A stretch of DNA of 64,000 nt from Podospora anserina (lineage: Eukaryota): NCBI GenBank assembly GCA_017654855.1, contig CM030338.1:3782001-3846000 (forward strand), read 5' to 3'. The position numbers and the translations under genes are program-made. Positions 5,717-59,929 of the stretch are shown here, in pieces; the stretch's first letter is position 1; each line of letters opens with the position of its first letter. The notes beneath the pieces were generated by a model. That model saw only the letters and a program-made list of their open reading frames with translations. It made no database searches and was not told where the DNA came from.

Positions 5717-6098
5717 TTTCATCACGAGCGATAGTACCATCTTACCACGTCCGTTGTGGACCAAATGATAGAGACTGTCGCTAGCAGTAGGGCCTTGAAG
5801 ATAGCTAGCATACCTCCAGAGGTAGTGAGTAGGGCTTGACTACCTACCTTGTATCTTAATAGGCCTTTAAAGATAGTCCATATGTTTTCGGAGATGGTGG
5901 AAAAGCCTTGAAATGATTATATGAGGTGTTTTTCTTATGCTTTACGCACTTTCTTCTACGTTGTGATCTCTATCATTCTATTTACTACGTCTTATCTCAC
6001 TACATCATGCCTTCTCCGTCCCTCCCCCCTCTCCCTTGCACCCTCACCTTTCCCTTCCACTCTTTCCCGTCTCCTCCACCCTCTCCTCACCCCCACGC

Positions 6099-6165
6099 CC
6101 AGTTCAACGCCCAGTTCAACGCCCTGCTCAACGCCCTGCTCAACGCCTTGCTCAACGTCTAGTTG
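6099..6165. repeat. 12-bp tandem repeat (cccwgytcaacg) x5
   Basis: cccagttcaacg cccagttcaacg ccctgctcaacg ccctgctcaacg ccttgctcaacg. Confidence 0.8.
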
Positions 6166-6219
6166 AAAATTGTATCATTTTAAAAGGCCTACAACTTAAA
6201 CTCAACACTTTTTTCATTA

Positions 6220-6485
6220 TCTTTTAAGGCCTATCAAGTATCCTTTAAGGCCTTTTAATTATTTTCAAGGCCTATTTACTATCTTTTTAGGCCTATTGAA
6301 TTTCTTTTAAAGCGTATCAACTATCTTTGAAGGCCTATTAACTATCTTTGGAGGCCTATTAACGATCTTTTAAGGCCTATTACTTATTTTTAAGGCCTAT
6401 TAACTATATTTTAAGCTAAATGAACTATCTTTCGAGGCCTGCTGACTATCCTTCAAGACCTGTTGACTATTTTTAAAGCCTATTA
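6220..6485. repeat. 21-bp minisatellite array (AAGGCCTATTAACTATCTTTT consensus), about 12 units
   Basis: Recurrent aggcctat..actatcttt with about 21-bp period; largest array of this family in the window. Confidence 0.9.
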
Positions 6486-6533
6486 TCTAGGTAGGTACCA
6501 AGCATCACTGACGATGTAGCGCGGTCTAGAATT

Positions 6534-8066
6534 TCAGGAACTTTGAACCGGGACAAAAACCACCAGTACGGCGAGGAATCTGTTGATGTCGTGTCAGCCT
6601 CTTCTTCTGTGGCTCCTACGAGGGGATTCGTGGCCATGCATGATTCTGGTGCACTACCTGTTTGGTTCAGGGAGTCAGGGGCTAAGGGTTCAGGGTTTAA
6701 ATAGGGGTCATCACTGGAGTGCAAAGAAGAGTGTTAAGAGAGACAGAGAAGCTTACGCGGAGGTGGCCGTAAACACTTGAACTCTTGTCCCTTCGGTCAT
6801 GCACATGACTGCTATGGCGAAGAGGACTGTGAAGCATGTGATCATGGCCAGTTTATGGTACAAGTTGGGGACGATAGAGAGGCAAAGAATGGCGACAATT
6901 GGAAGCATGCAGGCCACCAAAGTTGCTCCGCGATAAGTCAGCTTGAGTAGCGTGTCGCCCGAGTATGCTCGAACGTTGTCCTTTCCGATGTTAGTAACCT
7001 GATAGGCTGGCTGGATGACCACCAATCTGAATGTTGACTCACGGTTCTTGACCTCCTTTTCTGCGCTTCTTTATCTGCATCCTCCACATGGTTGGTAGAT
7101 GTCTTTTCGCTTCCCTCTTGACCGGCCGTAGACTCCGAATCATCCGCTTCTCTCTTGTGGGGGTTTTTTACAGCTTCTCTGAAGGGAATGAGTTCCTCCG
7201 CGAGCCACCGTGTCAGGCCGTCGACATCCTTTCGCCAACGAGGTGCCACAAGGTCTGCTCTGGTTGGCGGTTCCGTCTTGTTCCAGAAGCTGATGAGATT
7301 CATGAACTGTTGGCGAAGTGGGGGAGGCTCTGGCTTCTTTTGCTGATCCCCCCATATCTCGCTGCCAACTCCTTGAACAGTCATGTTCCCATGATCTTCG
7401 TCCTGGAGCCACTTCACTAGTTGTCGCATGTTGTGAGTACTGGGTTCAGGGAGCGTTGATATTCGGGAGTACTGCAAGAGCGCTTCGTCTATGCCAATGT
7501 GAGCCCACGACCCGAAATATTTGACGAACTGAGGAGAATACAACAAGATTGAACATACCGTAGCCCTTCAAACATTCCCTCAATTCTCGAATCTTCAAAA
7601 ACTGTTTACTGTTGGTGCCCGGTCCCCAGAAAATCTTCTCGGGTTCTTTGTGAAACTCAGACTCGCCATGAAGGTCGAGACCATTCGAATCCCTGTCCAG
7701 CTCTTCCAGATCCTTCAATTGTTCCCTCAACACTGATAACTCGACTTGATAATACAAAAGGTTTTTGATATGAAGGTCATGGAACCGCGAAAAGGCCGCA
7801 AAATCTGGTGTCTTCGTCATCAATCTTGCGAGATCAAGCCAGCCTTCAGCGGGGATTGGTTCCTCAATGGCAATCGATGCGAGTGATGGAGTCGGTTGGT
7901 GTTCCGCTCCGTCTATTGCTTGTGTCGGGTTGATCAAGGGATCCACTGACGCCGCTGTTACAGTTGTCGGAGCGCTGCTTCCACGCGACCTGTCACTCCC
8001 CATGGGACTGGTTGGGCTTGAGGGCTCTGAGCCTAGAGTTGAGCCTGCAAAGTCTGAGCGTGCCAT
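6534..8066 (-). CDS. DUF6594-like membrane protein, spliced
   Basis: FAAFSRFHDLHIKNLLYYQVEL motif; C-terminal TM helices; last exon rebuilt as ..VFTATSA/FLAVLVVFVPVQSS* (stop at 6534-6536). Confidence 0.75.
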
Positions 8067-21823: not shown

Positions 21824-23526
21824 ATGGAGATCACCGGCAGAAATCAGGACGCGACTTGGTCAGACAGCGACCACACAAACTCAATCTCTCCCAGCGAAAC
21901 CGCTTCATTTAAAGATGCCGAAGCTCAGGCTCCCCCTCCTCTGGAGAATGAGAAATACTACGAGGCTGAACATCGTGGCGGTGTCGAAGATCCCAACGAT
22001 TACTATCCCAGCGGCTTCCATCCCGTCCTTCTGGGTGATTTTCTGGGCAAGAGCAGTCGATTCCGGGCCATCAACAAACTAGGAGCCGGCGCACACGGCA
22101 CGGTTTGGCTTTGCAGAGACAGGGCCACGGCCAAATGAAGGGCCGTCAAAATCTTTTCTGCGAAGGTCTCGCGTCCGACAGCCGACATCGACCCCCACGA
22201 GCTTCCAGATCACCGAACCACTGCAATGGCAGACATGGTCATCTCTAAGCACCTTGCCAAATGGTACCAGCCAGACGACCCAGCCCTTAGAAAACATCAC
22301 ATCGGCATCCCACTTGAGTACTTCCGGATCAATGGTCCGAATGGCAAGCATCTCTGCCACGTTTCGCCTTTTATAGTCCCACCATTGAACACGTCCACGA
22401 CCTGTACTCGCCCTGTCAGTCCTTCCTGAAAGCCATCGCCTATCAGATGGTTCATTCCATGGCCTTTCTTCATCAGCACGGCATCTATCATGGCGACTTT
22501 CGACCCGCAAACGGCATGTTTTGCTTGCTTCCTGGAGTCGACGAATGGCCAGAGGAGAAGATGATCAAGCTCTACGGCAAACCGAAAATAGTCCGAGTCC
22601 ACGCAGTTGACGAGGAGGGGGAACGGGACTTTGAAATCGAACCGAACGTCTCTCCTTATCTCATCCAAACGGCCAACTTCGACCTTTCTTCCGGCGCCTG
22701 TTCTTACAATATCGCGGTTATTGACTTTGGCATGGCCTACTTCCTCGACAATCCACCCACCATCTGCGCCACCCCATTCGAGCTGTCCTCCCCCGAAGGG
22801 ATTTTTACCAACGGGCGATTAGGTTGGCCGGCAGACATTTGGTCACTCGCCTGCACTATTCTTTGGACCGTGGCGGGAAGTTACCCATTCGGCGATGAAG
22901 ACTCGGAGTCCACACCATGGCTTGTCGTAGAGGACGTGGAAAGGCTTATGGGACCAATGCCACTGCGCTATCGTCCCCTGCTCACCAGCTGTGTTAGCGC
23001 CGGCAGAGAACTGAGCGAGCGACAGATGAATGACCCGTCCAAATACGCGACTTTCAATCGTCGGGAATCTCACGCCTCCACATACCATGGCGATCCCGAC
23101 GTGATCAGAAACAGAATTTTTGTCAAATATGTGCTTCCCTGGACATCGGAGGAGTATGAGGAGCTCGCCAAACAGGACGAGATCTGGAGGAAAACAGGAC
23201 GTCTTCCCAAGTACATCAAGGCGGCGGGGACTGGAGGTGAAACGATCTGGCGCCCAAGCCTACTACATGATCGCGAGGATGGCGAGGCTCTGTCGGACCT
23301 GTTGCTATCCATCTTCAAATGGGAACCAACTGAGCGTGCGACTACCAAAACCATGCTGGCACATCCCTGGTTTAAGGACCACCGCTCTCGTGGTTCTGAC
23401 AGCCAGTCAGCATCCCAGCAAGGATGGAACTATCTGGCTAGGGGAAAAGGGTTGATGTGGATCTTGGGTGGTTTGCTTGTTGGGGTGGTATCCTTTCGAC
23501 TTCGCAAGAGAGTTTTGGGCAACTAG
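21824..23526 (+). pseudogene. SRPK/Sky1-like protein kinase, disrupted
   Basis: YYPSGFHPVLLGD..KLGAGAHGTVWLCRD, in-frame TGA at 22136-22138 before RAVKI, 1-bp frameshift near 22376, then HGDFRPAN, DFG, DIWSLAC; C-terminal TM segment. Confidence 0.8.
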
Positions 23527-25285: not shown

Positions 25286-25801
25286 CTATTCGCCCTTGAA
25301 CGCCTTTTCCAGTCCCTCAATATCGAGCTTCTTCATCCCCATCATAGCCACTGATGCTCGTCCAGCTGCCGCCACATCCTCGCTGACTAGCATCTCCTTG
25401 AGCCTCTTGGGCACAACCTGCCACGACACGCCAAACTTGTCAGCCAGCCACCCGCACTCTTGCTTTGTGACATCTCCCCCCTCGCTCAACTTCCCCCAGT
25501 AATAGTCGACTTCTTTCTGATCGGCACAGTCAATCATGAAGGACACGGCGTGATTGAAGGTGACGTGAGGCCCGCCATTCAGACCTGAGAAGCGGTGACC
25601 GTCAAGGTCAAACTCGACAAAGAGGATGGAACCGGGTTCCTGTCCATGAACTTCCTGGCCGGCCTCTGAATAGCGCTGGCTGCGCAGGATCTTGGAGTTG
25701 GGAAACACGGACGTGTAGAATTTGGCTGCTTCTTCAGCTTGAGTGTCGAACCAGAGGACAGTGGTGAGGGTGAGGTTGCCGGCGTGAGTGGTAAGCGACA
25801 T
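25286..25801 (-). CDS. PhnB-like VOC protein (3-demethylubiquinone-9 3-methyltransferase family)
   Basis: LWFDTQAEEAAKFYTSVF, LNGGP, QKEVDYYWGKL, CGWLADKFGVSWQVVP, MKKLDI; intronless. Confidence 0.9.
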   Translation of the reverse strand: MSLTTHAGNLTLTTVLWFDTQAEEAAKFYTSVFPNSKILRSQRYSEAGQEVHGQEPGSILFVEFDLDGHRFSGLNGGPHVTFNHAVSFMIDCADQKEVDYYWGKLSEGGDVTKQECGWLADKFGVSWQVVPKRLKEMLVSEDVAAAGRASVAMMGMKKLDIEGLEKAFKGE

Positions 25802-26562
25802 TCTGCAGACAAGTAACGAGGTATGGAAGAGATGGAGAGGCTTGTTGAACGGCTCGAGCCTAGAGGTCCGGGTAGGCGGCCAAGAAGGAAGGAGAGACCA
25901 TCCTCGGGCAAACAACAGGTCGGGCAAGATGGCACATATTAAGCATCATGGACAAAGAAGCCGGAGCGACTTCCTCCCGTCTTGTGGCTTGCGATTACCC
26001 CTCCAAGTCCTCAGGCAGCAACGCCAACCAGGGCATGGTGGCGCCTCCAATGACGCGCTCCCGACAAGCAACTCGTGAAACAGATCCATCTGGACGTGAC
26101 GCGTAGTCACCTGATGTCGTCACCCATCACAGTTTTGTGCGGTTCGCGGGGGTCGGCATTTGTAGGGTTAGGGTCCTGGTAGACATCCCTGAGGCAGACA
26201 TGATGACAACACCATTTCTTAAAGACGGGCAGGTTCAAAATGTCGACATATTAAGTAAGGGGTTACTTGCCTTAAGTTCCTTCTTTCATCTCTCAGGTCT
26301 TTTCTTTCTCGGTGTCCGCCGACTATTATTACCAGCCGCGTTGGGTGACATCTCAAATCCTACAAACCAACCATCCGCCCTATTAAACAAGCGATGATAC
26401 CCTGCTATATAGATACCGAGTTCGTATTCTGTAGCTTCGCCACACCTCGTCGCATGAGAGTACAACTCAACTTAATGCCAATTGCTCGCCCAGACAGTTG
26501 CAGTCCATATCCATTCCATCAATGTCACTTTACAACAAACTTCATCACATACACGCGCCGCC

Positions 26563-30154: not shown

Positions 30155-31858
30155 CTACAGCGTGATTCCCTCGATCTTCCCTAGAATCCTCTCAACGAAC
30201 TTTATCCCGACCACGATCAGATCCTGTTTGTTATGTGTGACGTCCGAGCTGCCGAACTCATTATTCCCATCATCCAAACAGGTAAGACAATCCACCACGA
30301 TCTCTGTATACAACCACCCCATGCGCTGCGGGAGGGTCTGTTTTGTCAGCAAGACAAGATCCTCTTTGATCCATGACGTGGATCCTGGTAAATGGGCATG
30401 TTCAAAGTCCCGATCGCTCAGATGCTTTCTCAGCTGCAGTGAATATCCAGGAACAGGAGTTGGGATCGATGATGACGAGTTAGTGTGATTGGGGTGATGA
30501 TAGGTTGACGAGGTCGAGCTACTGGTGGACGGGTACCAGACCAAAGACCGCCATAATCCAATCTCAAGGAGGCACACACCCAGGCTATATATATCGTGCT
30601 GCATAACATATCTCTCCAAAATGCAAAGTCCCTGTCGTGCTGGATGCCGGTAAAGGTTCCGATACCAGGCTGTGTCACCGAGGCGGTTCGTCTCCATGTT
30701 GATGCTTCGAAATTGCGAGAAGCCGACAAGAAAAGCCTGGCCCAGTTCCAGAGGTCGCAGAGCAGCAAGAGCTGTTGGGAACAGCAGAATATTGTCCGGA
30801 CGAATATTCTTGTGTACCAAGTCGCAGGTGTGCACGAAGCTGACAGAACGAACAAGCTGTTTTGCCAGTGCGATGACCGAACTGAGACAAACAGGTCTTT
30901 GCTCAAGTAAGAGGCTGCGAAGGGTGGTAGGCGGCTTGAGAGGGTCTGCCTGGGCCGGGGTATGATACACAATCTGGGGACCGAGGGGAAAGGTCTTGTT
31001 GTCGTCAATGATCTCGAGGAGACCCTTGCAGCGTAGAAGGCCAAATATGCTTGGGTCAACGCTCTGGAGTCTCCTGCATAGTTGATAGGCGTCCGATGTA
31101 GTGTTTGTGTTGGTATTTGGGGCAGTACCAATGCCTTCCATGACATACAGACTTTGAGATTTCGGTCGGGCCACAACGTTGACGCTTGAAAAAGGAACGC
31201 TGGTTGCTGTGGTAAAGTCCCATCCTGTCTCATCCATGACGATGCTATTCGCACTTCTGATATCGGTGTTGATCGTGTAATCGATGGCCTTTCTTAACGC
31301 AAACATGTGATCCAGAGGGCTTGCGGGAGATTGGTTGTGTGGTAGCTGTCGGGATCTATCTTGTCCTAACTGCTGCAGTGCCGGGTCCAAGACCTTGCCG
31401 CCGATGAGCATAATCGTATACCACGATGGATCGAACAGACTTTGCCAGCACTGTAACTCCGTCATCAACGCGTCCAACCCTTTTTTGGCCACAGCATATC
31501 TCCACCTGTCAAGCTGAAGCATTCTGGTCAGCACATGTCCCTGTCCAGTACTGGTGGAGGCGACTATCGATGAAGCCGCTGCTTCGAGCTGAGATACCGC
31601 CTGTAGCAGAGTTCCGCGTAGTCTTTGGAGAAGATCAAAATGACATTGTGCAAGTTCTTCAGTCAGATGATCTTTGATCCCGCGGAGGAAAACGAGCTGT
31701 ATCTCTAGTTTCGTCCAAATCGTTTCGAGTAAAAGCACCTTATCACAGAGATCTTTCTTCGCAGTCCTGAAAGCTTGGCAGATGCGCAGGGTCTTGTTGG
31801 CAAGCTTGATGCAAATGTCGACGACGCTGACAACTGCGAGAGCGAGTTCTGCAGACAT
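30155..31858 (-). CDS. HeLo-like (HELL) N-terminal domain plus C-terminal pseudokinase (MLKL-like architecture)
   Basis: MSAELALAVVSVVDICIKLAN amphipathic N-terminal helix; RWRYAV..WQSLFDPSWY; kinase C-lobe VHKNIRPDNILL (HRD to HKN), LVGFSQFR (no DFG), YRHP, HDIYSLGVCLLEIG; intronless. Confidence 0.8.
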   Translation of the reverse strand: MSAELALAVVSVVDICIKLANKTLRICQAFRTAKKDLCDKVLLLETIWTKLEIQLVFLRGIKDHLTEELAQCHFDLLQRLRGTLLQAVSQLEAAASSIVASTSTGQGHVLTRMLQLDRWRYAVAKKGLDALMTELQCWQSLFDPSWYTIMLIGGKVLDPALQQLGQDRSRQLPHNQSPASPLDHMFALRKAIDYTINTDIRSANSIVMDETGWDFTTATSVPFSSVNVVARPKSQSLYVMEGIGTAPNTNTNTTSDAYQLCRRLQSVDPSIFGLLRCKGLLEIIDDNKTFPLGPQIVYHTPAQADPLKPPTTLRSLLLEQRPVCLSSVIALAKQLVRSVSFVHTCDLVHKNIRPDNILLFPTALAALRPLELGQAFLVGFSQFRSINMETNRLGDTAWYRNLYRHPARQGLCILERYVMQHDIYSLGVCLLEIGLWRSLVWYPSTSSSTSSTYHHPNHTNSSSSIPTPVPGYSLQLRKHLSDRDFEHAHLPGSTSWIKEDLVLLTKQTLPQRMGWLYTEIVVDCLTCLDDGNNEFGSSDVTHNKQDLIVVGIKFVERILGKIEGITL

Positions 31859-32497
31859 GGTTCTTGCAGTTCTGTGGACCAGGTGACGCGATTGTGAGGT
31901 TGTTGTAAGGTATGTTGTATCAGATGGTAAGGTGGTGATGAAAAAATGCGGTCTGTGTCGGCTGGTTTTGGCGTGGCGCAGCTCGGGGAAAGGCGTCGTA
32001 GACAATATAATAGACAATGGAGCTATCCCGAAAGATGCTAACCAGAAACACCATGGATGTCTTCAACAGCTCTTGTAATATACCTATATCAAGCACCTCT
32101 AAAGGAGCTGAAAGGGTATGTGGACTGCCCTTGCAGGCATATTACTTGCCACGGTATCTAGGTAGGTAGGTATCTTTAAAGACTTATTAACTACCTTCAA
32201 AAGTCTGTGAACTATCTTCCAAATCCTCATCCAAAGTACAGATTCCATTTTTTTTGTCCACGACGTATTCAGGGGTCGGCTGACTGCTGCCTGGCCGCCG
32301 CTTGCATGTGGCCAAGCAAGCCACAGCGCCATAGCTCGTTTCTGGACGCGCGCTGAAGACAGGGGGCGCGCTGAAAACTAAAAACGCGCTTAAATCCAAG
32401 GCATGAATATGGATGTTAAATACTGCCATCGTTCCTCACTGTCGTATCACTTAGAGCCTGACTTACCCATATATGAGGTAGTTTGGATGCTGTGACC

Positions 32498-34458
32498 ATG
32501 GCTGAAGGTATATCCGAGTTGGTTAATTCCTCTCGGCTGGTGACAGAATTTTACCTCCCGAATTTTGTTGTCCACCATCTTGAAACTGTTAATGAAATCT
32601 GGGATCTGAGAGAAGAAATTGGCTATGGAGGATCTGGCGTGGTGCGAAAAGAGGAACGTCGAGTTCACTCCAGTGGAGAGAAATATCAGGGTCCAATGGT
32701 ACGAGCCGTGAAACAGATGAGAAAGGTTCCTCAAAACCCAGACCAAGGACAGTGGAATTATAGAGCCGAGTTGGAAGCAGTGGTGAAGTTCTCACAGCCA
32801 GAGGTATGCAAGCACGTGTGGTGGAAATGTCCAATGAAAGTTAACATTCAGCAACTTGCTAGTATGACCCTTTCTTTGTGCGCACCTTTGGGTGGTTCGA
32901 AAACCAAGAATCTGTGTTTCTGGCCATGGAATATCTTCCATCGAGTGACCTAGAGAAATTCAGAAGGTCCTCGCCTCCGCTTTCCGAATTTGACACGAGC
33001 CTGATCGTGTGGCAGCTGATTCAAGGTGTGCGACACATGCACGATGCTGGGTTTGCGCATCGAGACTTGAAGCCAGGGGTAAGTGGTGATACTACGTGTT
33101 CTTCATGTCCTCGACCATGTCACATGTGTCCCAATACAGTCAGTCGTTATTGCCTGTAAATACCTAGCTCACATCGACATACCCAGAATATACTCATTGC
33201 CTCAACATCACCGATCTGGCACGTCAAAATCGCCGACTTTGGAATCAGCAAGCAAGCTATGCAGGGTGTAACACGCTTTCACACCATGCGAATCTTCGGG
33301 ACCTTGGGATATATGGCACCCGAGGTATTGGGTTACTATGCCAACAACACCGGAATCAACAATACCACGATTGCATACACTATGTCGGTCGATATTTGGG
33401 CCGTTGGTGTAATTGCAATGACCTTGCTGCTTGGGCGCGATATCTTTCCTTTGCCGGGCGATTACGCCAAATATGTCTTTGGACAACGGGCTCTTGACTT
33501 TGCCCGTGGTCAAGGTGAGGTTTTGACAGACGATTGCCAGGACTTCATCGCGGCCCTTCTTGCAGCGGATCCAATACTTCGACCGACTGCTGCTGCTGCC
33601 CTCGCCCACCCTTGGTTAATGCAGGCCACCGAAGCAACTGAACCTTCTCCAGTAAGAGAGATCCCGGACTCGGAAGCAGACTCAGACGAGGACTCCGCTC
33701 CATCTGATTCACTACAGCCTTCCACAAAGAATCCGTGGGCGACAATCGGCAGTAGAACTTGGCCGAGCAAAGGATCGAAGACATACAGCGACGCGCTCCT
33801 GACGAAGTTCAAGTACCTCTGGCTTGATATTATTCTTCTATCTCCCAAGTTCCATACTATTGAGTTCGAGAAGGTTTGTCTCTCTCCTTGTCCATTGGCC
33901 AGCCAATGGCACGATTTAACGGCGTTCTTCTTCACCTCAGACTCGGTTTTATGTTCTACGCTCCGATAACGCCACAGATATTGAGACAAGCGCTGCTCAG
34001 AGCGTGTGGACTTCTAGTCAGCGTGTCAACAAGATCCTTGACAAAGGATACCGGACATCCGAAGGCCATGTGGTTCTATTCTTCTCCGTGATTGGTAGGT
34101 AAGTAATCGTTTCACATGATTCAAATTACCTATTACTGGTGGAGGTAGGCAAGGTATCTTATAAAGACATGAAGCTGACACACACTGCACCAGTCGGCGA
34201 TTCTGTGGAGTAGCACAGATGACCAGCGCACTGGATTGGGAGAATACTGACCCCCATTGGGTTGAGGATGTCTGGCAGGGACGGTTCACCTTGGCCTGGC
34301 TCAGTCATACAGAGCTCTCATTTGACCTTGTCAACCATGTCCCGGTAAAGGAGACCACACCGGGTTTCAGAGCTATCGCTTGTTACGATGGCACTGAGAT
34401 CTCACCTGGATCCGCATATGAATTATTGAGAGTTTTTTCGGCGGCGGAAAGACGGTGA
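32498..34458 (+). CDS. Ser/Thr protein kinase fused to a C-terminal YTH domain (543 aa, 5 exons)
   Basis: Exons 32498-32803, 32863-33078, 33187-33873, 33941-34098, 34194-34458 splice in frame (1632 nt). Kinase: GYGGSGVV, RAVK, HRDLKPGN, DFG, APE. YTH: RFYVLRS..VWTSS..NKILD..LFFSVIGSRRFCGVAQM..HWVEDVWQGRF..YDGTEI. Confidence 0.85.
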
Positions 34459-34843: not shown

Positions 34844-35570
34844 TTAAATCCACTGATAAACGCTGAGTTTGCTTGAACCACCGCAAGTCTCGGTGGGAGC
34901 ACCAGTACAGGCCAAATCACAATCCGTGTCTTCGAGTTGGACGCTCAAAGCATCTAGCTCATGGCCACAAAAGCATTCAGCCATGTATTGCAGTCCAAAG
35001 AAGACAAATCCAGAGTTGAGACAGTAATCCGCACAGCGTTCGATTGTCATGGCCGCAGGGGAGAAGCCAAAGCCTCCAGCGAGAGCCCGATCGGGGGCGG
35101 GGAGCTCACTAAAGCATCCTTGGTACACTGGGGCGGAGACCTCAGGGTGAGGATAAGGCGTATGTGGAGGGGCCTCCTCAGAACTGCCCCAGAGAGAGAT
35201 GCGGTTTGGACCTCCGCATGTCTGACCGGCGTCTCCAGTGCATTGCATGGAGCAATCTTCCGGGAAGGTAGGGAAGGAACCTGTGTCAAGAGAGTTGCCA
35301 CAGTAGCTGTGAGACTTGTTAGATACCGGATGATACGGAAACGGGGAGAGCTTCTTTGACTTACCACTCGCCTCCATATTCTAGTCCCCAGAGGGTGAAA
35401 TTACGGGTGGGATCGGTGCAGTATGTCTCGCAAGCCTCCACGGTCATCGCCTCGAAATCCGCGGTGCTCGCGCCAGTCAAAGCCCGAGTGGGAATTTCCG
35501 TATAGCAGCCGTAAGAAGTTTGCCCGACGACGGCGGGGACAAGGGCGGCAAGAGCGAGAACGGAGTACAT
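34844..35570 (-). CDS. Secreted double-WSC-domain protein, 1 intron
   Basis: Signal peptide; YGCYTE..MTVEACETYC..GLEYGGECYCGN..C...CGG repeated twice. Confidence 0.88.
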
Positions 35571-39471: not shown

Positions 39472-40139
39472 TTACATCATCATGCTTCCACCTGCCATCA
39501 TCAGCTGCTGGATCCTCGCACCAGCCCCGCTCGCCGCTCCGGGCGCGTGCCCGTACACAGACTCGCCGAACATACGCATCTGCATAGGAAGAAACCTGTC
39601 GCCATAATGGTCGATAATATCTGATTTCTCGACGGCCGAACGCAGGCTGGACCATCCACCCGAGGATCCCAACGCAATGCATGCCTTGGCCTTCTCCTCA
39701 TTCCATCACGCCGGCAACAATTCAGACTTGCTCTCAACGTCCTTTAGGAAGCGGCGAAAAGGTTCGATGGAGTCCTGGCGCCACCGTAGAGGCCATCCTC
39801 ATCGGCGTCTCCTTCAAATTTGTATTGGTCATCAGCGCGGAGGCGGTATACATCGACGAGTAGTTTGTAGACTTCTTTTTCCGGGCGGCTATACAGCCAG
39901 GAACCTTGGTTGAGTTGGCCGAAGGAGTTGTTACCCTCCATGTGAGGCTGGGAATGCATGCTGTTGGCAAAAGGGCGTCCTTCGGCCCCGGGCTGGCCTG
40001 GCTTGCCGCAGATCTTTTTGTGAGCTTTCCAGTCCTGTTTTTGGCACTCGCGGGAACAATATTCGGTGAGTGTACACTTGGCACACCGCTTCAGGGGGAC
40101 CTCGGAGGCTGACTTGCTGCAAGTGGTGCAGGAGGACAT
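39472..40139 (-). pseudogene. MYND zinc-finger protein, disrupted
   Basis: CTTC..RCAKC..YCSRECQKQDWKAHKKIC; frameshift near 39775; LLPA*WN nonsense codon at 39706-39708; downstream frame continues ..AVEKSDIIDHYGD..MQMRMFGESVYG. Confidence 0.8.
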
Positions 40140-40330
40140 TGTGAGTTGTGTGAGGTCTGAGTGGGTGGCTTCCGAAAGTCTTGGTTTGGGAAGTGTTTGG
40201 GGAACTTGAAAGGAAAGAGAGAGATCCTCGGGCCAGCATGTTACAGCCCTTGCCACAACATAGTTGGTATATAAAAGTAAGTCAACTTATATTATATTGT
40301 GAATTGAGCCTCAAAAGATAACTATTAGGC

Positions 40331-42321: not shown

Positions 42322-43346
42322 TCATAACCGTTGACTGATGGTCTCCAACCACAGCACCTCCTCAGGCCGCAATGTGATCCCTTCGGGTATTATGACCTCC
42401 CCACGTTTGATAACCACCTCGGCATCCTCCCCCATCCCTCTTTCAGAATCAGTGCTGCTGGTGGCCGATGCCCCAGGTTTTTCCAGCCTTGGCCTGTTTT
42501 CCTCTTCTTTTTGTCTCTGTTGCTCCCGTCTCGCCGCTTGGTTCCAGAACAACCCCGTCTCACTAGGTGACCACCAGTAGAATGGGAACCTCCGCTGAAT
42601 GTTGTTAACAAGCAGGGCCACTATCAGCATGAGGCCACACCCCAGTGAGACAGGCACCAACACATACCACCCCAGCCTGCTCACATCATCATCCACCACT
42701 GCCATCAGAGCCGTGGCTCCAGCAGGCGGGTGCACCGTTCCCGTCAGGGCCATAACCGCCGTGGCGAGACCGCATGACAGCGCCCCTCCCAGCCATCGAA
42801 CACGCTCAAACTCCTCCGGCCCCAGCAAGGCGAACAGTTTACAGACGATAATCCCCGTGATACTGGCTAATATCTGACCGAGGATGGCGTTGCGGGGCTG
42901 GGCAAGCGGCGACTCGATTGCGTAAAAGTCCAACACGGCGGCAGCACCCTATGTTGATATCAGCAAACACATTCGAGAGAAACAAGAGCCGGAACACAAC
43001 ATACAAAACTCCCAATGATAACCGGCACCCCCTTCTCCCCAAACCCCGGAATCTCCTGCCCTACCGCCCCGATCAAGGCCAAGCTGCTGAATATCCCCAC
43101 CACGGCCCAGAATATCATGGGAATATTGCCCAGTGGTGGCTTCGGATGCGCCGCTGGAGGATGAGGGGTGCGGTACCCGAGGAAGTGCGCCACGGCCCGG
43201 GGAAAGCGGGGCAGGAATGAGGAAGGAAAGAACGGGTTGACGTGAGCGTCAACATCGAAGTGGAGTGTTGACCATGACGACCTTGGCTTCTCGGTGGGTG
43301 GTTTTCGGGTTACGTGCGTGTTGGAGGGTGAGGGGGTGAAGGACAT
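42322..43346 (-). CDS. HPP family integral membrane protein, 1 intron
   Basis: IIGSFGAAAVLDF..ESPLAQPRN after splicing; TVHPPAGATAL. Confidence 0.92.
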
Positions 43347-55870: not shown

Positions 55871-57748
55871 ACGTATATTATAAGCGAGTCGTACATATAA
55901 GCGAGTCGTACAGTCTCCACCACGACGCGTCCTCCTTACACCTAACATCAATTTTTTCCACAACCCAACATGCCTCCTACTTCAAAGGAAGCCAGGATAC
56001 TTTTAGCCCTTGAGGCTCTCCAAAAGGACGAAAAATTAAGCCTCCGAGCTATAGCTAAGCTTTACAACGTACCACCTATGACTCTCTCTAACCGACGCGC
56101 CGGCCGGCCTACATAACACGATACTACGCCTAGATCGAAAAAGCTTACTTAATCCGAAAAGGAGGCTATTATTTATTATATTATTAAGCTATCTACGCGA
56201 GCTTTTCCACTAAGGTTACGTAGTGTAGAAGATATAGTTAATTAACTATTATACGTACGCAACGCGCCCCCTATTAGTAAACTTTAAATATATAATTTTA
56301 TTAAACGTTAATTATAGTTTTATATATATTTTACGTGTAAATATAATTATTAAAGGGTTAAATACGAAAATCCGAAGGTTATTACCGAATAATTTACGTT
56401 TATACGGAATATTAAAATTAAATATAGTATTATAAATAATAATATTTTTAATTTTAACGAAATTAGGTTTATAATAAATATTATTTTCGTAAATATAATA
56501 ATTATAATCTCGGACGGCCTTAGTAAAGTAAAATTAGTTTAGTTTAATAATCGCGAATAAAAAATAATAATTTAAAAAGTTAATACCTTTAATTAAATTA
56601 TTCCGCCCTTTATTATTTTAACCGTATAATATTATTTTATTAATTAATATATTAAGTATAATTTATTATTTATTTAATATATTATAATTATTAATAATAA
56701 TTAAATTATTAATCCGGTAAATTTAAATTAAATTAAGTATTTCGATTATTATATAACGTTCCGTACTAAAAATAAATATTAATTATTAATCTTTAATAAT
56801 TACAAAAATTATTATTTAATTAAATTCGAATACTATTATTAATAAAATAATATTATTATACTTTATATATTTTTATATTTCTTTTACTTTTTTTAATTAC
56901 TTAATATTAATTATTTTAGGTTATTAAAATAGGTATATAGCCGCTAGATCGAGGGTTTAATATATATATATATTAATTACGTAAGTAAGCTTGAGTTTCT
57001 CTATACTTTCCGTAAAACTTTTTTCGCTTCTATAATGGAGAAAAATATATAAAGTAGCTTTATAATATTAATTTTATACTATACGATTTAAAGAAAGTAC
57101 TTTCTAAATTAAATATAAAGCTTTATACGCTAATACCTTTATTTATAAAACCGGGTACGGTATTTCTTTAAATATTTTAAATATTATAAAATCTTTAAGA
57201 AACTAACTTATATTTAATATTTATTAAAATTTATATTATTAATTATTAAAATAACTTTCCGACTTTAATATTAAATACTATAAATTAATTTACTAAAAGT
57301 ATAATAATTATAATATATTAAGTGGCCCTCTTATAGGTAGAGGTCTCTTCGCTCCGTAAGGCTAATAAGGTACTAAGTAAGCGCCGGAGAGCTAAAAAAA
57401 TACGTGTACGGCTCGGAGGATCACTTACTGTGCAAGATGCACAGGATCTACTAGACCAGAAGGCCGTGGGTGGGGAGGTAGTGGAAGAAATATAGCCGGA
57501 TAGCGGTAGTGCAGGGGGGGCTCGTACGACGGTTCGGTGCTGTGGTGTGTGCGGCAAGCCTGGCCATAACGCGCGCACTTGCTAGGAGGCTGGGGAATCA
57601 TCTGATTCAGCCGTTTCTGATGTAATTGTAGTTGCTTCCTAATGTTGTTGCGGTATAATTGAGGATAGTTGTTGTAGGGTGGTGGAGACTGTACGACTCG
57701 CTTATATGTACGACTCGCTTATATGTACGACTCGCTTATAATATACGT
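55871..57748 (+). mobile_element. Fot1/pogo (Tc1-mariner superfamily) DNA transposon, RIP-inactivated
   Basis: TA target duplication (55869-70 and 57749-50); TIRs acgtatattataagcgagtcgtaca..gtctccaccac; ATG 55970 MPPTSKEARILLALEAL..SLRAIAKLYNVP (HTH); CGVCGKPGHNARTC near 57540; extremely AT/TpA-rich core with many stops. Confidence 0.95.
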
Positions 57749-57830
57749 TAACTATCTTTTAATACCTATTCACCATCTTTAAATACCTACTTACTATCTT
57801 TAGATATTTATTTACTATCTTTAAAGCCAT
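57749..57830. repeat. 21-bp repeat array interrupted by the transposon
   Basis: taactatcttttaatacctatt caccatctttaaatacctactt actatctttagatatttattt; a matching unit lies left of the element at 55845-55870. Confidence 0.7.
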
Positions 57831-59929
57831 CGTAGTTCTCTTTGGGGAAATCTCAAGTATGTTTTAGTGCCACCATCTTGCGAGTAAGAAGTCATCGCCT
57901 TCTGTTAATGATTACCTTAGGTGTTCTAACACGAAAGAACGCCCTTTTAAAGACAAGGTCTAATTTTTGATATACTTCGATAAGTTCCAGTAAATAACGG
58001 ATTCCTTAGCCACTCAACCCATGATATATTGATCACTGTTGGTTTTACGCTAATCTCTTTCACGAAAAGGTGTTGCAAGATCGCCTCCTAAAAGCAACTC
58101 CCTACCTAGGTACCAGGTAAACAAACTCCACGAGCAGCCCGCTCCTCATCACGAGTGGACCGTGACAGTACCTCCGTTGTTGAAAACACTGAGCTTCCTT
58201 CTCTCGATGTTCGGTAGCATGGGATTAATCGTGAAATCTGCAATTCCAGAATGGCTGACAAACCTATCTCCCAGCAAAAGGGAGATCGTCAGAGAAATTA
58301 TTTCATGGCTTACATATCGAAATGGGTTACATTTAAGAGAGTAGGTAGGTAAACATAAGATGAACGGGGACATAGATAGGAGCGCATCTAGACCTATAAC
58401 ATTAGGTAAGGAAGCAGACATCCTGTGGGAGGATGAGTTGCTCCCGGATTCAGTTAGGTTGCTCTTAGGGCTTCCGCCCTGTCGGCCAGGCACAAATTTT
58501 GTTAGTCTAGATATGTCTTCTGCTCCCCGGAGATGTTTTTCCTAGTGCTGCTCAACATCATCACTTTTCTCGCAGTTCTGCTGGCGCTCCACACATCCGC
58601 TACGAATCATGTGTTGCCCCAAAAATAGGAGGTATTTTTTGCGATGCAGGTGGGGGTTTCGAGTGATGGTTCCAACTTGCGGCGAAGAGATCGAGATTCA
58701 ACAGGTTGAAAAGCAGGTTTTGACCAGACCTGTGGGGAGGAGATGGGCCGTGGGAGTTGCGCTGTTCGGTCCAGCTAGACCAAGTACGTCTAGTGGATAG
58801 TGGGTGGTTGAGCGTTCAATCCTTGAAAATATCCGTTGTAAAACCAAGGCAGCAAATTTGCACATGCCCGTATGGATGCACAGCATTTCTCTCCATATCG
58901 GTGGAGTTTGGCCTTGACTCGCAACCCACCCGACCCTTGTAGAAACGAAAGTTCCTCTGTTCGGGTCCGGGAACCATTGGCATCTCGGTTGGGTTGGAGG
59001 TGTGTGTAAGGTAGGTGGCTTCATCGTGCATTGGGGGGTTACCATCAACCAGTGAGCTGTTATCGTCGGTTTTGGTTTCTAAGACGTACTCGGTCCTGCA
59101 ACTCCAGTTCATGTAGACCGACGTAACTGAAGATAGAAATCCATGGTAAGGCGGGTCGTATTCGGGCATTGCTTGCCATGTTTTATGCAGCTCAGAGCTG
59201 TAGAGCTGAAGCTAGCTGATGGGGAGTCGGCATGCAGACCATCTGAGACAGGTATTTCCGCCTGCAGATCCTGCAAATCGCCACTCTTTATGGCCAAGCG
59301 TCTCGGTGTTCGAAATTCTGGTTCCTGATTCTCATCATCAGCAAAGCCGCATCCCGCATCATGCCACCATCAGCATGTCACCTTCAGCATCCGCTATCGG
59401 GTTGGCAGGTGGATTCTCGCAAGGTCCCCCACCATTTTTGGCACCGATTTTGTGGCGGGCGAGTCGCCGCGGGCCGTCCAGGAGTGCAGTAGCTCAACCG
59501 CCAAGCATCTTGACCATCTTGATAGCTGTCAGATGCTGCGCAATCCTGGTATTAGCGTGGGGCTCCCGTGGGATCGTCACAGGCATTACTCTGTATTTGG
59601 TCTGGTGCCTGATAGTGATAGTTCTCGCTGGCATGATCCCTCACCCGCTCCCAGACTACCATTGGGTCGAAGATCCGGCATCGTTCCCCTATAGGCGATC
59701 CAAGTTTCCCTCAGACCCCACGACGACTAGGTAACTTAGGTAGGCAGGTAGCGAGAGGAGTAGACACTGAAAGATGCAGCGTGACGTGAGGAGACGGGCA
59801 TTTCAAATTCCCGGGAGCCCATCTTCATAAAGTAGCCGTTCTCCTTCAGTCTCGGATGGCTAGAGGTGTGCTGCAGGCTGCCAGTCCAGTGTGTGTTGTT
59901 GTGCAACGATCATCCGCAGAATCCATACC

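Follow-up and report, generated by a model that had tools for sequence, protein, structure and literature searches.

Gene organization at the locus

The DNA analysed here, referred to as the window, is a 64,000-nucleotide stretch of the Podospora anserina genome (positions 3,782,001–3,846,000 of contig CM030338.1), and the element under study is a pair of divergent genes between window positions 30,155 and 34,458. The minus-strand gene, PODANS_7_990, encodes a protein with a predicted N-terminal four-helix bundle (the head) followed by a pseudokinase domain, and its plus-strand neighbour encodes a Ser/Thr kinase fused to a C-terminal YTH domain. The minus-strand ATG ends at 31858 and the plus-strand ATG stands at 32498, head to head with 639 bp between them, and the coordinates given for this divergent pair in the original prediction, which was made from the letters alone, are exact. 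The features of the two genes are listed below; the Pfam scores for the kinase-YTH protein are those of P0121, the annotated Podospora bellae-mahoneyi orthologue, which is about 98% identical to the product of the window.

30155..31858, minus strand: PODANS_7_990 coding sequence, single exon, 567 residues, predicted four-helix-bundle head plus pseudokinase
31340..31858, minus strand: N-terminal helical domain, residues 1–173
30158..31270, minus strand: pseudokinase domain, residues about 197–567
30806..30814, minus strand: H349-K350-N351 in place of HRD, aligned to the HRD of the partner kinase
30689..30691, minus strand: Thr390 of the activation segment, Thr in 35 of 36 family members and a gap in the other
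31859..32497, no strand: intergenic spacer of 639 bp between the divergent genes, a presumed bidirectional promoter
32498..34458, plus strand: kinase-YTH gene, five-exon model, product of 543 residues
32498–32803, 32863–33078, 33187–33873, 33941–34098 and 34194–34458, plus strand: exons of the kinase-YTH gene, introns all GT..AG
32606..33618, plus strand: Ser/Thr kinase domain of the CAMK group, spanning introns 1 and 2 (Pkinase, 163.8 bits in P0121)
33941..34437, plus strand: YTH domain, spanning intron 4 (PF04146, 106.9 bits in P0121)

Transcript-type contigs of four public runs were aligned to the region; none of these runs is recorded as RNA, and GT..AG joints are nonetheless present in their contigs. 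The introns of the kinase-YTH gene (59, 108, 67 and 95 nt) are all joined in contigs from two to three runs (X1, X2 and X3, from two studies), PODANS_7_990 is covered by unspliced contigs (30122/30170–31920) with no joint, and positions 31921–32449 are without any contig while the genes on both sides are covered. The two genes are therefore both expressed, as two separate divergent transcripts, and contig depth, being a poor measure, cannot rank their expression. The annotation of P0121 places the intron 1 donor 12 nt further on, adding four residues; the P. anserina contigs use the donor of the window model, without these extra residues.

Two unusual splice forms were seen in single runs. Run X3 contains an additional 49-nt GT..AG intron within kinase exon 2 (32965–33013), and this form is probably unproductive, as the predicted frame shifts ahead of the HRD motif. 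Run X2 contains one contig over 33656–34600 at depth 368, next to adjoining kinase contigs at depth 3–4, in which intron 3 is spliced but intron 4 is retained; with intron 4 kept, translation would stop just where the first half of the YTH domain ends, and the contig may reflect either a 3' transcript of high abundance or a regulated retention of the intron. On the other strand, the product of PODANS_7_990 differs at one residue from the reference protein P0001 (identity rounds to 100%). With A at window position 30316, residue 515 of the pseudokinase is Trp where P0001 has Arg, and G is found in four of four runs. The difference is probably due to strain or to an assembly error; A-to-I editing was considered and is ruled out, since the change on the mRNA strand would be U>C.

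The pseudokinase domain

Pfam Pkinase matches PODANS_7_990 over residues 314–440 at only 22.5 bits, under the cutoff of 31.7. The full-length structural model (predicted local distance difference test score, pLDDT, 74; predicted template modelling score 0.75) nevertheless shows a complete kinase fold, extending from about residue 205 to residue 567. In VIA-align comparisons this domain scored Z 21.1 to FES and BRAF, 19.5 to RIP3 and 18.1 to the rat MLKL pseudokinase with 240–262 residues aligned, all within one band of ties, so that the MLKL pseudokinase, at rank 40, stands among many kinases at Z 18–21. The best Foldseek matches are SRPK, CLK and IRAK4.

A family alignment of 36 members, reaching down to 33% identity, was used to follow the catalytic residues. 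In the triplet that replaces HRD, H and K are present in 36/36 members, whereas the third residue is N (31 members), G (4) or K (1) and in no case D. The position equivalent to the DFG Asp, after strand β8, is Gly in all 36, and Glu or Asp takes the place of the β3 Lys in 34. The assignment of 'GFS' as the DFG equivalent is supported by the order of strands in the model; in the HMMER and BLAST alignments DFG falls at residues 369–372, and there is no Asp at the DFG position whichever of the two alignments is used. Such consistent absence of the catalytic residues across 36 relatives indicates an old, conserved pseudokinase family and no recent wreck.

The activation segment is among the best-conserved parts of the domain, with G394, D395, Y403, R404, H405, P406 and Q409 invariant in the 36 members, and Thr390 within it is a candidate phospho-acceptor. 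In the full-length model residues 390–399 fall below pLDDT 50 and the segment is disordered there. The P. anserina protein carries a Ser/Thr-rich insert at residues 446–463 and lies on a long branch (0.94 versus 0.44 for L002, one of the metagenome loci described below). In most relatives (L001, L002, L007, L013, L026 and others) a phase-0 intron interrupts the first helix of the head after codon 18, and the P. anserina gene is without it (window 31805–31858). DUF7580 was rejected as a family assignment; its matches are weak, sub-threshold and placed in the kinase C-lobe of 8 of the 36 members.

The N-terminal helical head

The head was modelled with AlphaFold from an alignment of 48 sequences taken from the window and the metagenome loci, and the model has a pLDDT of 88.7. 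Helices at residues 3–29, 35–60, 67–101 and 109–141 form a predicted four-helix bundle, followed by a brace-like fifth helix at 144–171; the full-length model repeats these helices and adds another at 181–193. The first 25 residues or so are hydrophobic.

When the head was compared with 48,161 representative chains in VIA-align, the four-helix bundle of MLKL (4btf_A) was found at rank 22 with Z 8.4 and a root-mean-square deviation of 2.6 over 97 aligned residues, a score within the range common among helical bundles, where Z under about 13 is usual for helical proteins. MLKL and five entries for plant coiled-coil (CC) or CC-R domains lie within the top 40, the latter being the helical domains of the plant NLR immune receptors Rx (9.3), Sw-5b (9.2), MLA13 (8.2), NRG1.1 (7.8) and the wheat resistosome (7.5). 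Designed bundles outscore the natural matches (Z 12.1). HET-s is not among the best 50 rows, and its absence there excludes nothing. In an ESM-Atlas feature search, which yields neither alignment nor E-value, the nearest named clusters carry PF14479 HeLo (0.94, 177 shared features, 7 hits), and clusters carrying PF17111 and PF17107 follow at 0.85–0.86. Some relatives of the pseudokinase protein are named 'het-s domain protein' by their sources.

An exhaustive profile search with the head found 657 representatives, 469 of them at E≤1e-10. The best 150 of the 657 are all of 650 residues or fewer, and 45 proteins shorter than 320 residues, matched at E≤3e-28, are collinear fragments of full-length members; over these best 150 the head therefore travels with the pseudokinase. 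A search of the head profile against proteins of 67–303 residues in a set of 5.8 billion gave none at E≤0.01, a result that is unreliable given those 45 short proteins.

The kinase-YTH protein

The spliced product of the plus-strand gene contains GYGGSG (the Gly-rich loop), AVK, HRDLKPGN, DFG and APE, and so has the full catalytic set of an active eukaryotic protein kinase, the VAIK Lys and the catalytic Asn included. Among 29 kinase-YTH orthologues K72, HRD, N179, DFG and APE are invariant or nearly so. The solved sequences nearest to the kinase domain are Rad53, STK17B, DAPK2 and CaMKI/II of the CAMK group, by which the kinase classifies as CAMK-type and as no relative of RIPK, and the RHIM core [IV]Q[IV]G was not found in the kinase-YTH sequence.

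PF04146 matches the last exon of the window gene by itself at 32.3 bits (cutoff 22.1), and the nearest solved match to the YTH part is YTHDF2 (E 5.2e-19). The domain keeps Trp at three positions aligned to Trp residues of YTHDF1/2, which we take to be the residues of the cage for N6-methyladenine (m6A); across the 29 orthologues W482 and W487 never vary and W430 hardly does. By these criteria the YTH domain is YTHDF-like with an intact predicted methyl-adenine cage, and the ligand of this branch is presumably N6-methyladenine on RNA. An annotated 996-residue protein of Verticillium longisporum (P0152) combines kinase, YTH and cytochrome P450 and is probably two gene models merged.

Both proteins thus have the composition originally proposed for them from the open reading frames. 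The intact kinase with a YTH domain is borne out by the motifs of the spliced product and the PF04146 match, and the helical N-terminus joined to a kinase fold without catalytic residues by the predicted bundle and by the motif loss across the 36 family members.

The pair is conserved among orthologues

When the last YTH exon was used as query, 32 proteins were found and Pkinase and YTH are present together in all of them (32/32). Linkage to the pseudokinase was assessed in 31 species by comparing the organism names and the lengths of the longest contigs recorded for the kinase-YTH and pseudokinase matches. In 23 of the 31 species both orthologues are on equally long contigs, some of which are only 16–36 kb, as in Triangularia setosa (15,949 bp), Achaetomium macrosporum (31,579 bp) and Podospora australis (35,683 bp). 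The contigs of the two orthologues differ in size in two species, Xylaria arbuscula and Verticillium longisporum, and six species have no pseudokinase among the best 120 of 1312 matches. Positional locus tags are likewise adjacent (PODANS_7_990 versus QC761_700980; ANO14919_060580/060590). The species with a YTH pair span Sordariales, Xylariales and the helotialean Amylocarpus. In the metagenome loci L001, L002 and L026 the kinase-YTH gene is again head to head with the pseudokinase gene (3/3), 379–422 bp apart, and the pseudokinases are 42–44% identical to that of the window.

Paralogous pairs and the variable tails of their kinases

Beyond these orthologues, a metagenome scan for the pseudokinase family gave 80 loci, and clustering these at 95% nucleotide identity left 66 distinct groups. 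A kinase related to that of the window (tblastn, 30–52% identity) lies no more than 3.5 kb away in 43 of the 66 groups; it adjoins in 22 of the 27 groups whose flanks both reach 2.5 kb or more, and in 29 of 37 when this length is required of the upstream flank alone. As a control, 42 kinase matches were counted in 310 kb of near flank (≤3.5 kb) and two in 269 kb of far flank, and pairing is far beyond chance. Among 44 arrangements, 34 are divergent, five are tandem with the kinase first and five tandem with the kinase second. HxD and DxG are both kept in 39 of 41 distinct partner kinases. In one locus (L011) a second kinase frame (6008–6787, minus strand; Pkinase 95.4 bits) follows the tail of the partner, so that two kinases stand in a row beside the pseudokinase.

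The open frame that follows the kinase domain was scanned with Pfam in 28 loci (30 open reading frames), with the following outcome.

10 loci: WD40 tail
1 locus: TPR_10/TPR_12 tail
1 locus: ankyrin tail
2 loci: KA1 tail
1 locus: C2H2 finger tail, including the double-stranded-RNA-binding 'jaz' type
1 locus: ZZ tail, sub-threshold
1 locus: DUF629 tail, at threshold
11 loci: tail without a Pfam match

In at least 12 loci the tail and the kinase C-lobe are in one uninterrupted frame. YTH tails are confined, within the metagenome set, to the three orthologous loci. The C2H2-finger kinase (L078, 1126–2946, minus strand) matches the zf-C2H2_jaz model at 35.7 bits. The Pfam-blank tails share short C-terminal motifs by clade (L059 with L071; L007 with L021 and L033; L049 with L072), and these motifs may be undescribed sensor modules.

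The repeat arrays tested, in L058, L077 and L054 (WD40) and L080 (TPR), are 126-bp tandem repeats at the DNA level with 73–85% matches. Sensor arrays of fungal NLRs are of the ankyrin, WD40 and TPR types and have high internal repeat identity, according to the portion of Dyrka 2014 (PMC4986451) that deals with them; judged by this sequence criterion, the 126-bp arrays of the paralogous partner kinases are of the fungal NLR sensor type. The kinase of the window itself has its YTH domain and no such array. The original prediction had named conserved linkage with exchangeable sensor domains as the observation that would support a signalling module, and this is what was found, with 23 of 31 species and 22 of 27 groups linked and with varied tails.

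Co-divergence and rearrangement of the partners

Distances between pseudokinases and between their partner kinase domains are correlated (Mantel r 0.905, 37 pairs, 0/1000 permutations as high; r = 0.63 when restricted to pairs more than 0.4 apart in pseudokinase distance), and the figure shows only that both genes have been inherited and duplicated as a unit. Tail types were mapped on a quick maximum-likelihood tree of 64 pseudokinases, from which L001 and L026 were dropped because an extra intron shortens the extracted frame. The tail labels cluster on this tree (33 changes versus 40.7 in shuffles, 0/200 as low), and the WD40 tails need at least six changes across the starred branches.

Close relatives have been rearranged exactly at the spacer between the two genes, as seen in two comparisons of loci that are 93–96% identical. 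Between L029 (6957–9742) and L051 (6990–9743) the kinase-WD40 gene is inverted over 2.8 kb, with a breakpoint falling at the spacer. The second comparison, of L012 with L011, shows other sequence in place of the kinase in L012, starting some 350 bp upstream of the pseudokinase gene.

Other features of the window

The neighbourhood of the pair contains the following genes and sequence features.

22318–23526, plus strand: kinase-like open reading frame about 7 kb from the pseudokinase gene, Pfam Pkinase 62.7 bits over the C-lobe only, with HGD in place of HRD and scant similarity to the YTH kinase (BLASTP E 0.001)
25286–25945: open reading frame of the 3-demethylubiquinone-9 3-methyltransferase family
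34844–35570, minus strand: WSC-domain gene (PF01822, 100.3 bits), convergent with the kinase-YTH gene
39744–40286: zf-MYND open reading frame
42322–42948: HPP-family membrane open reading frame
56001–58000: isolated AT-rich block, GC 0.286 versus about 0.5 elsewhere, as expected of a repeat relic mutated by repeat-induced point mutation

A proposed sensor-kinase/executioner module

From the observed architecture of the two proteins, the loss of catalytic residues in one of them, the expression and splicing of both genes, their conserved adjacency and co-divergence and the variable tails, we propose, with a probability of roughly 45%, that the pair is a sensor-kinase/executioner module that works like RIPK3-MLKL and is widespread in filamentous ascomycetes. 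One gene would supply a catalytically active Ser/Thr kinase of CAMK type whose C-terminal tail binds a ligand; this tail is here the YTHDF-like YTH domain and in the paralogous modules would be an NLR-style WD40, TPR or ankyrin array, KA1 or zinc fingers. The other would supply a conserved pseudokinase with an N-terminal MLKL/HeLo-like four-helix bundle. Binding of the ligand by the tail (here m6A-modified RNA) would activate the kinase, which would then phosphorylate the activation segment of its partner, with Thr390 as the candidate site; phosphorylation would release the helical bundle, and its hydrophobic first helix would act on the membrane and cause cell death or ion leak. The binding, the phosphorylation, the identity of the ligand and the lethal output we infer, the logic being that of RIPK3 acting on MLKL, presumably reached by unrelated kinase lineages. 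The conservation of Thr390, the adjacency and the co-divergence point indirectly to such an activation of the pseudokinase by its neighbour. Complex prediction for the kinase domain and the pseudokinase domain, in which alignments were not used, gave a score of 0.00 and is evidence neither way.

Several results weigh against this proposal, and those for the head come first. Its structural match to MLKL has, as noted, a score that helical bundles commonly reach. Pfam HeLo (PF14479), Helo_like_N (PF17111) and SesA (PF17107) have a match in 0/36 members at E≤1, and the same models give 0/10 at E≤0.05 in a set that includes proteins labelled 'het-s domain protein' by their source. The head profile has no significant match to PDB sequences (best E 0.23, coiled-coil noise), and Foldseek of the head against the PDB gives none at E≤0.001. 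Classical HeLo-like domains do occur on proteins of NLR length, unlike this head, which is on no protein longer than 650 residues among the best 150 of 657 representatives. For the 'HeLo-like' label originally given to it, the predicted fold, the language-model look-alikes and the names given by sources speak in favour and the Pfam models against (0/36, 0/10); the head is best described, from its model, as MLKL/HeLo-like in fold and outside the Pfam HeLo families.

The remaining points concern the pair. An adjacent kinase is missing from five of the 27 well-flanked groups, the adjacency present in L011 is gone from its 95%-identical relative L012, and shared species history inflates the Mantel correlation. 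The tails were assigned from open frames and not from gene models, an intron being assumed outside the at least 12 in-frame loci. Orthologues of the YTH pair are retained from Sordariales to Helotiales, and identity among P. anserina isolates is 99%, a conservation that fits a housekeeping role as well as it fits immunity. Finally, m6A is a self mark: it also marks the fungus's own mRNA, and fungal writers and readers are reviewed in the part of PMC10826363 devoted to them. 'Foreign RNA', one of the triggers originally suggested, is doubtful because m6A would not by itself set it apart as 'non-self'. The trigger could instead be m6A RNA that is in excess or wrongly located in the cell, or viral RNA to which the host has added the methyl mark.

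Alternative explanations

The pair could be a non-lethal signalling unit, in which the pseudokinase activates the adjoining kinase allosterically, scaffolds it or anchors it to a membrane, the YTH tail takes the kinase to m6A-marked messenger ribonucleoproteins to regulate mRNA fate, and the head serves oligomerisation or localisation and not killing. Pseudokinases are known to act in this manner, STRAD for LKB1 and KSR for RAF. Because the YTH pair is so deeply conserved, with low divergence within the species, we regard this as a serious rival, though on balance an unlikely one. It would also account for the KA1 tail on two partner kinases, a tail typical of ordinary regulatory MARK/AMPK-related kinases, for a head without a Pfam HeLo match and seen on no NLR-length protein in the best 150 of 657, and for the transcription of both genes in ordinary cultures, apparently without harm. 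What it explains poorly are the WD40, TPR and ankyrin tails of 126-bp near-identical DNA repeats, which mark fungal immune receptors and not housekeeping kinases, the nearest look-alikes of the head, namely HeLo clusters, MLKL and plant CC domains, and the expansion of the family into many paralogous pairs with rearranged close relatives, in the manner of immune loci.

In a guard or decoy version of the scheme, the YTH domain would be no RNA sensor and would instead be an integrated decoy imitating the m6A readers of the cell, so that a viral or microbial factor attacking YTH readers would trigger the kinase and then the executioner. The awkwardness of sensing 'foreign' m6A RNA directly when m6A is a self mark argues for such a version, as does the common YTHDF type of the domain. 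To our knowledge, and with no search made for one, no effector aimed at fungal YTH proteins has been described, and the three cage Trp kept in 29 orthologues suggest selection on ligand binding, although a decoy could need that too. Integrated decoys, kinase domains included, have been proposed for the NLRs of Sordariales in the relevant part of PMC12258605, and we nevertheless consider a decoy role for this YTH domain rather improbable.

That the genes are neighbours only, kept together by a shared bidirectional promoter or by gene-order inertia with no direct biochemical link, is hardly credible: 34 of 44 arrangements are indeed head to head with a short spacer, yet adjacency persists in three arrangements (34 divergent, 5 and 5 tandem), survives the 2.8-kb kinase-gene inversion that distinguishes L029 from L051 and holds across paralogous pairs at just 30–35% identity whose partners co-diverge, and a shared promoter hardly explains why, in 39 of 41 cases, the dead kinase has a live one next to it.

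Relation to known systems

The proposed sensor-kinase/executioner module is alike to vertebrate RIPK3-MLKL in combining an active kinase with a partner made of a four-helix bundle, brace helices and a dead kinase fold. It differs in that the kinase is CAMK-type where the vertebrate one is RIPK/TKL, the RHIM core is missing, the sensor is fused to the kinase where in vertebrates it is recruited by amyloid adaptors, and the two genes are adjacent. Homology of PODANS_7_990 to MLKL was not detected at the sequence level, either with the head profile against the PDB or in the pseudokinase search, where MLKL is absent from the best 60 of 509 matches at E≤1. Descent from the animal system is unlikely on these sequence grounds (a CAMK-type kinase, no RHIM core, no MLKL sequence homology found), and the resemblance is probably convergent. 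As the kinase is CAMK-type and no relative of RIPK, the likeness to necroptosis, as we draw it by analogy, is one of logic and not of descent.

Plant MLKLs (Mahdi et al. 2020, 10.1101/681015) and Pm13 (PMC10951266), as presented in the portions of these papers considered here, are further examples of a HeLo or four-helix-bundle head joined to a pseudokinase in immunity outside animals; they belong to another lineage, and no dedicated neighbouring sensor kinase is described for them in those portions. The fungal pairs NWD2/HET-S and PNT1/HELLP are alike in having adjacent sensor and executioner genes, the executioner with a helical membrane-targeting head, and the fungal NLR/HeLo pairs and 'all-in-one' HeLo-NLRs in having WD40, TPR or ankyrin sensor arrays with high internal repeat identity (both from passages of PMC12881547). 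Here, unlike in the NLR/HeLo pairs, the signal would pass by phosphorylation in place of amyloid templating, and the head is unmatched by the HeLo Pfam models. Neither NACHT or NB-ARC nor an amyloid motif was found in the two window proteins, in which Pfam gives only kinase and YTH, and for the partner kinases of the paralogues Pfam gives kinase and repeat domains with no NACHT or NB-ARC. Fungal gasdermin-protease pairs of the het-Q1/het-Q2 type similarly join a pore-forming executioner to the enzyme that activates it, which in many cases carries fused WD40, TPR or ankyrin repeats (again in passages of PMC12881547); in the present pair a kinase takes the place of the protease and a four-helix-bundle pseudokinase that of the gasdermin. 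Readers of the YTHDF type and the fungal Pho92 and YTH1 clades share the YTH fold with three cage Trp and differ from the present protein, in which YTH is fused to a protein kinase.

Neither the pairing nor a kinase-YTH fusion was found in the full-text literature, subscription papers and supplements being outside the scope of the search, in agreement with the earlier statement that no characterised system has this composition. In a fungal YTH survey (PMC10826363, a Fusarium m6A paper) the word 'kinase' appears nowhere, and the survey says that entries with 'irrelevant protein names' were dropped; Wojciechowski 2022, in the part at hand, treats MLKL-like heads of NLRs only; and the Sordariales NLR paper (PMC12258605) discusses, in the corresponding part, kinase domains as possible decoys inside NLRs. 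What is new here is most likely a sensor/executioner gene pair with necroptosis-like logic. Rather more tentatively, and at somewhat less than even odds for the whole, the pairs may constitute a third, undescribed class of two-gene innate-immune or death system in filamentous ascomycetes beside the NLR/HeLo amyloid pairs and the protease/gasdermin pairs, an independent invention of the necroptosis switch whose YTH branch would be the first death trigger that reads N6-methyladenine on nucleic acid.

Possible implications for fungal cell death

For each bundle-pseudokinase protein the likely upstream kinase can now be named, being its neighbour, and these kinases bear the same repeat types as fungal immune receptors. 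One of the pairs is in the genetically tractable P. anserina, with m6A as candidate ligand and Thr390 as candidate phosphorylation site. If the proposed mechanism is true, death signalling from a kinase to a pseudokinase would have arisen more than once, and RNA methylation would be linked to the control of cell death in fungi.

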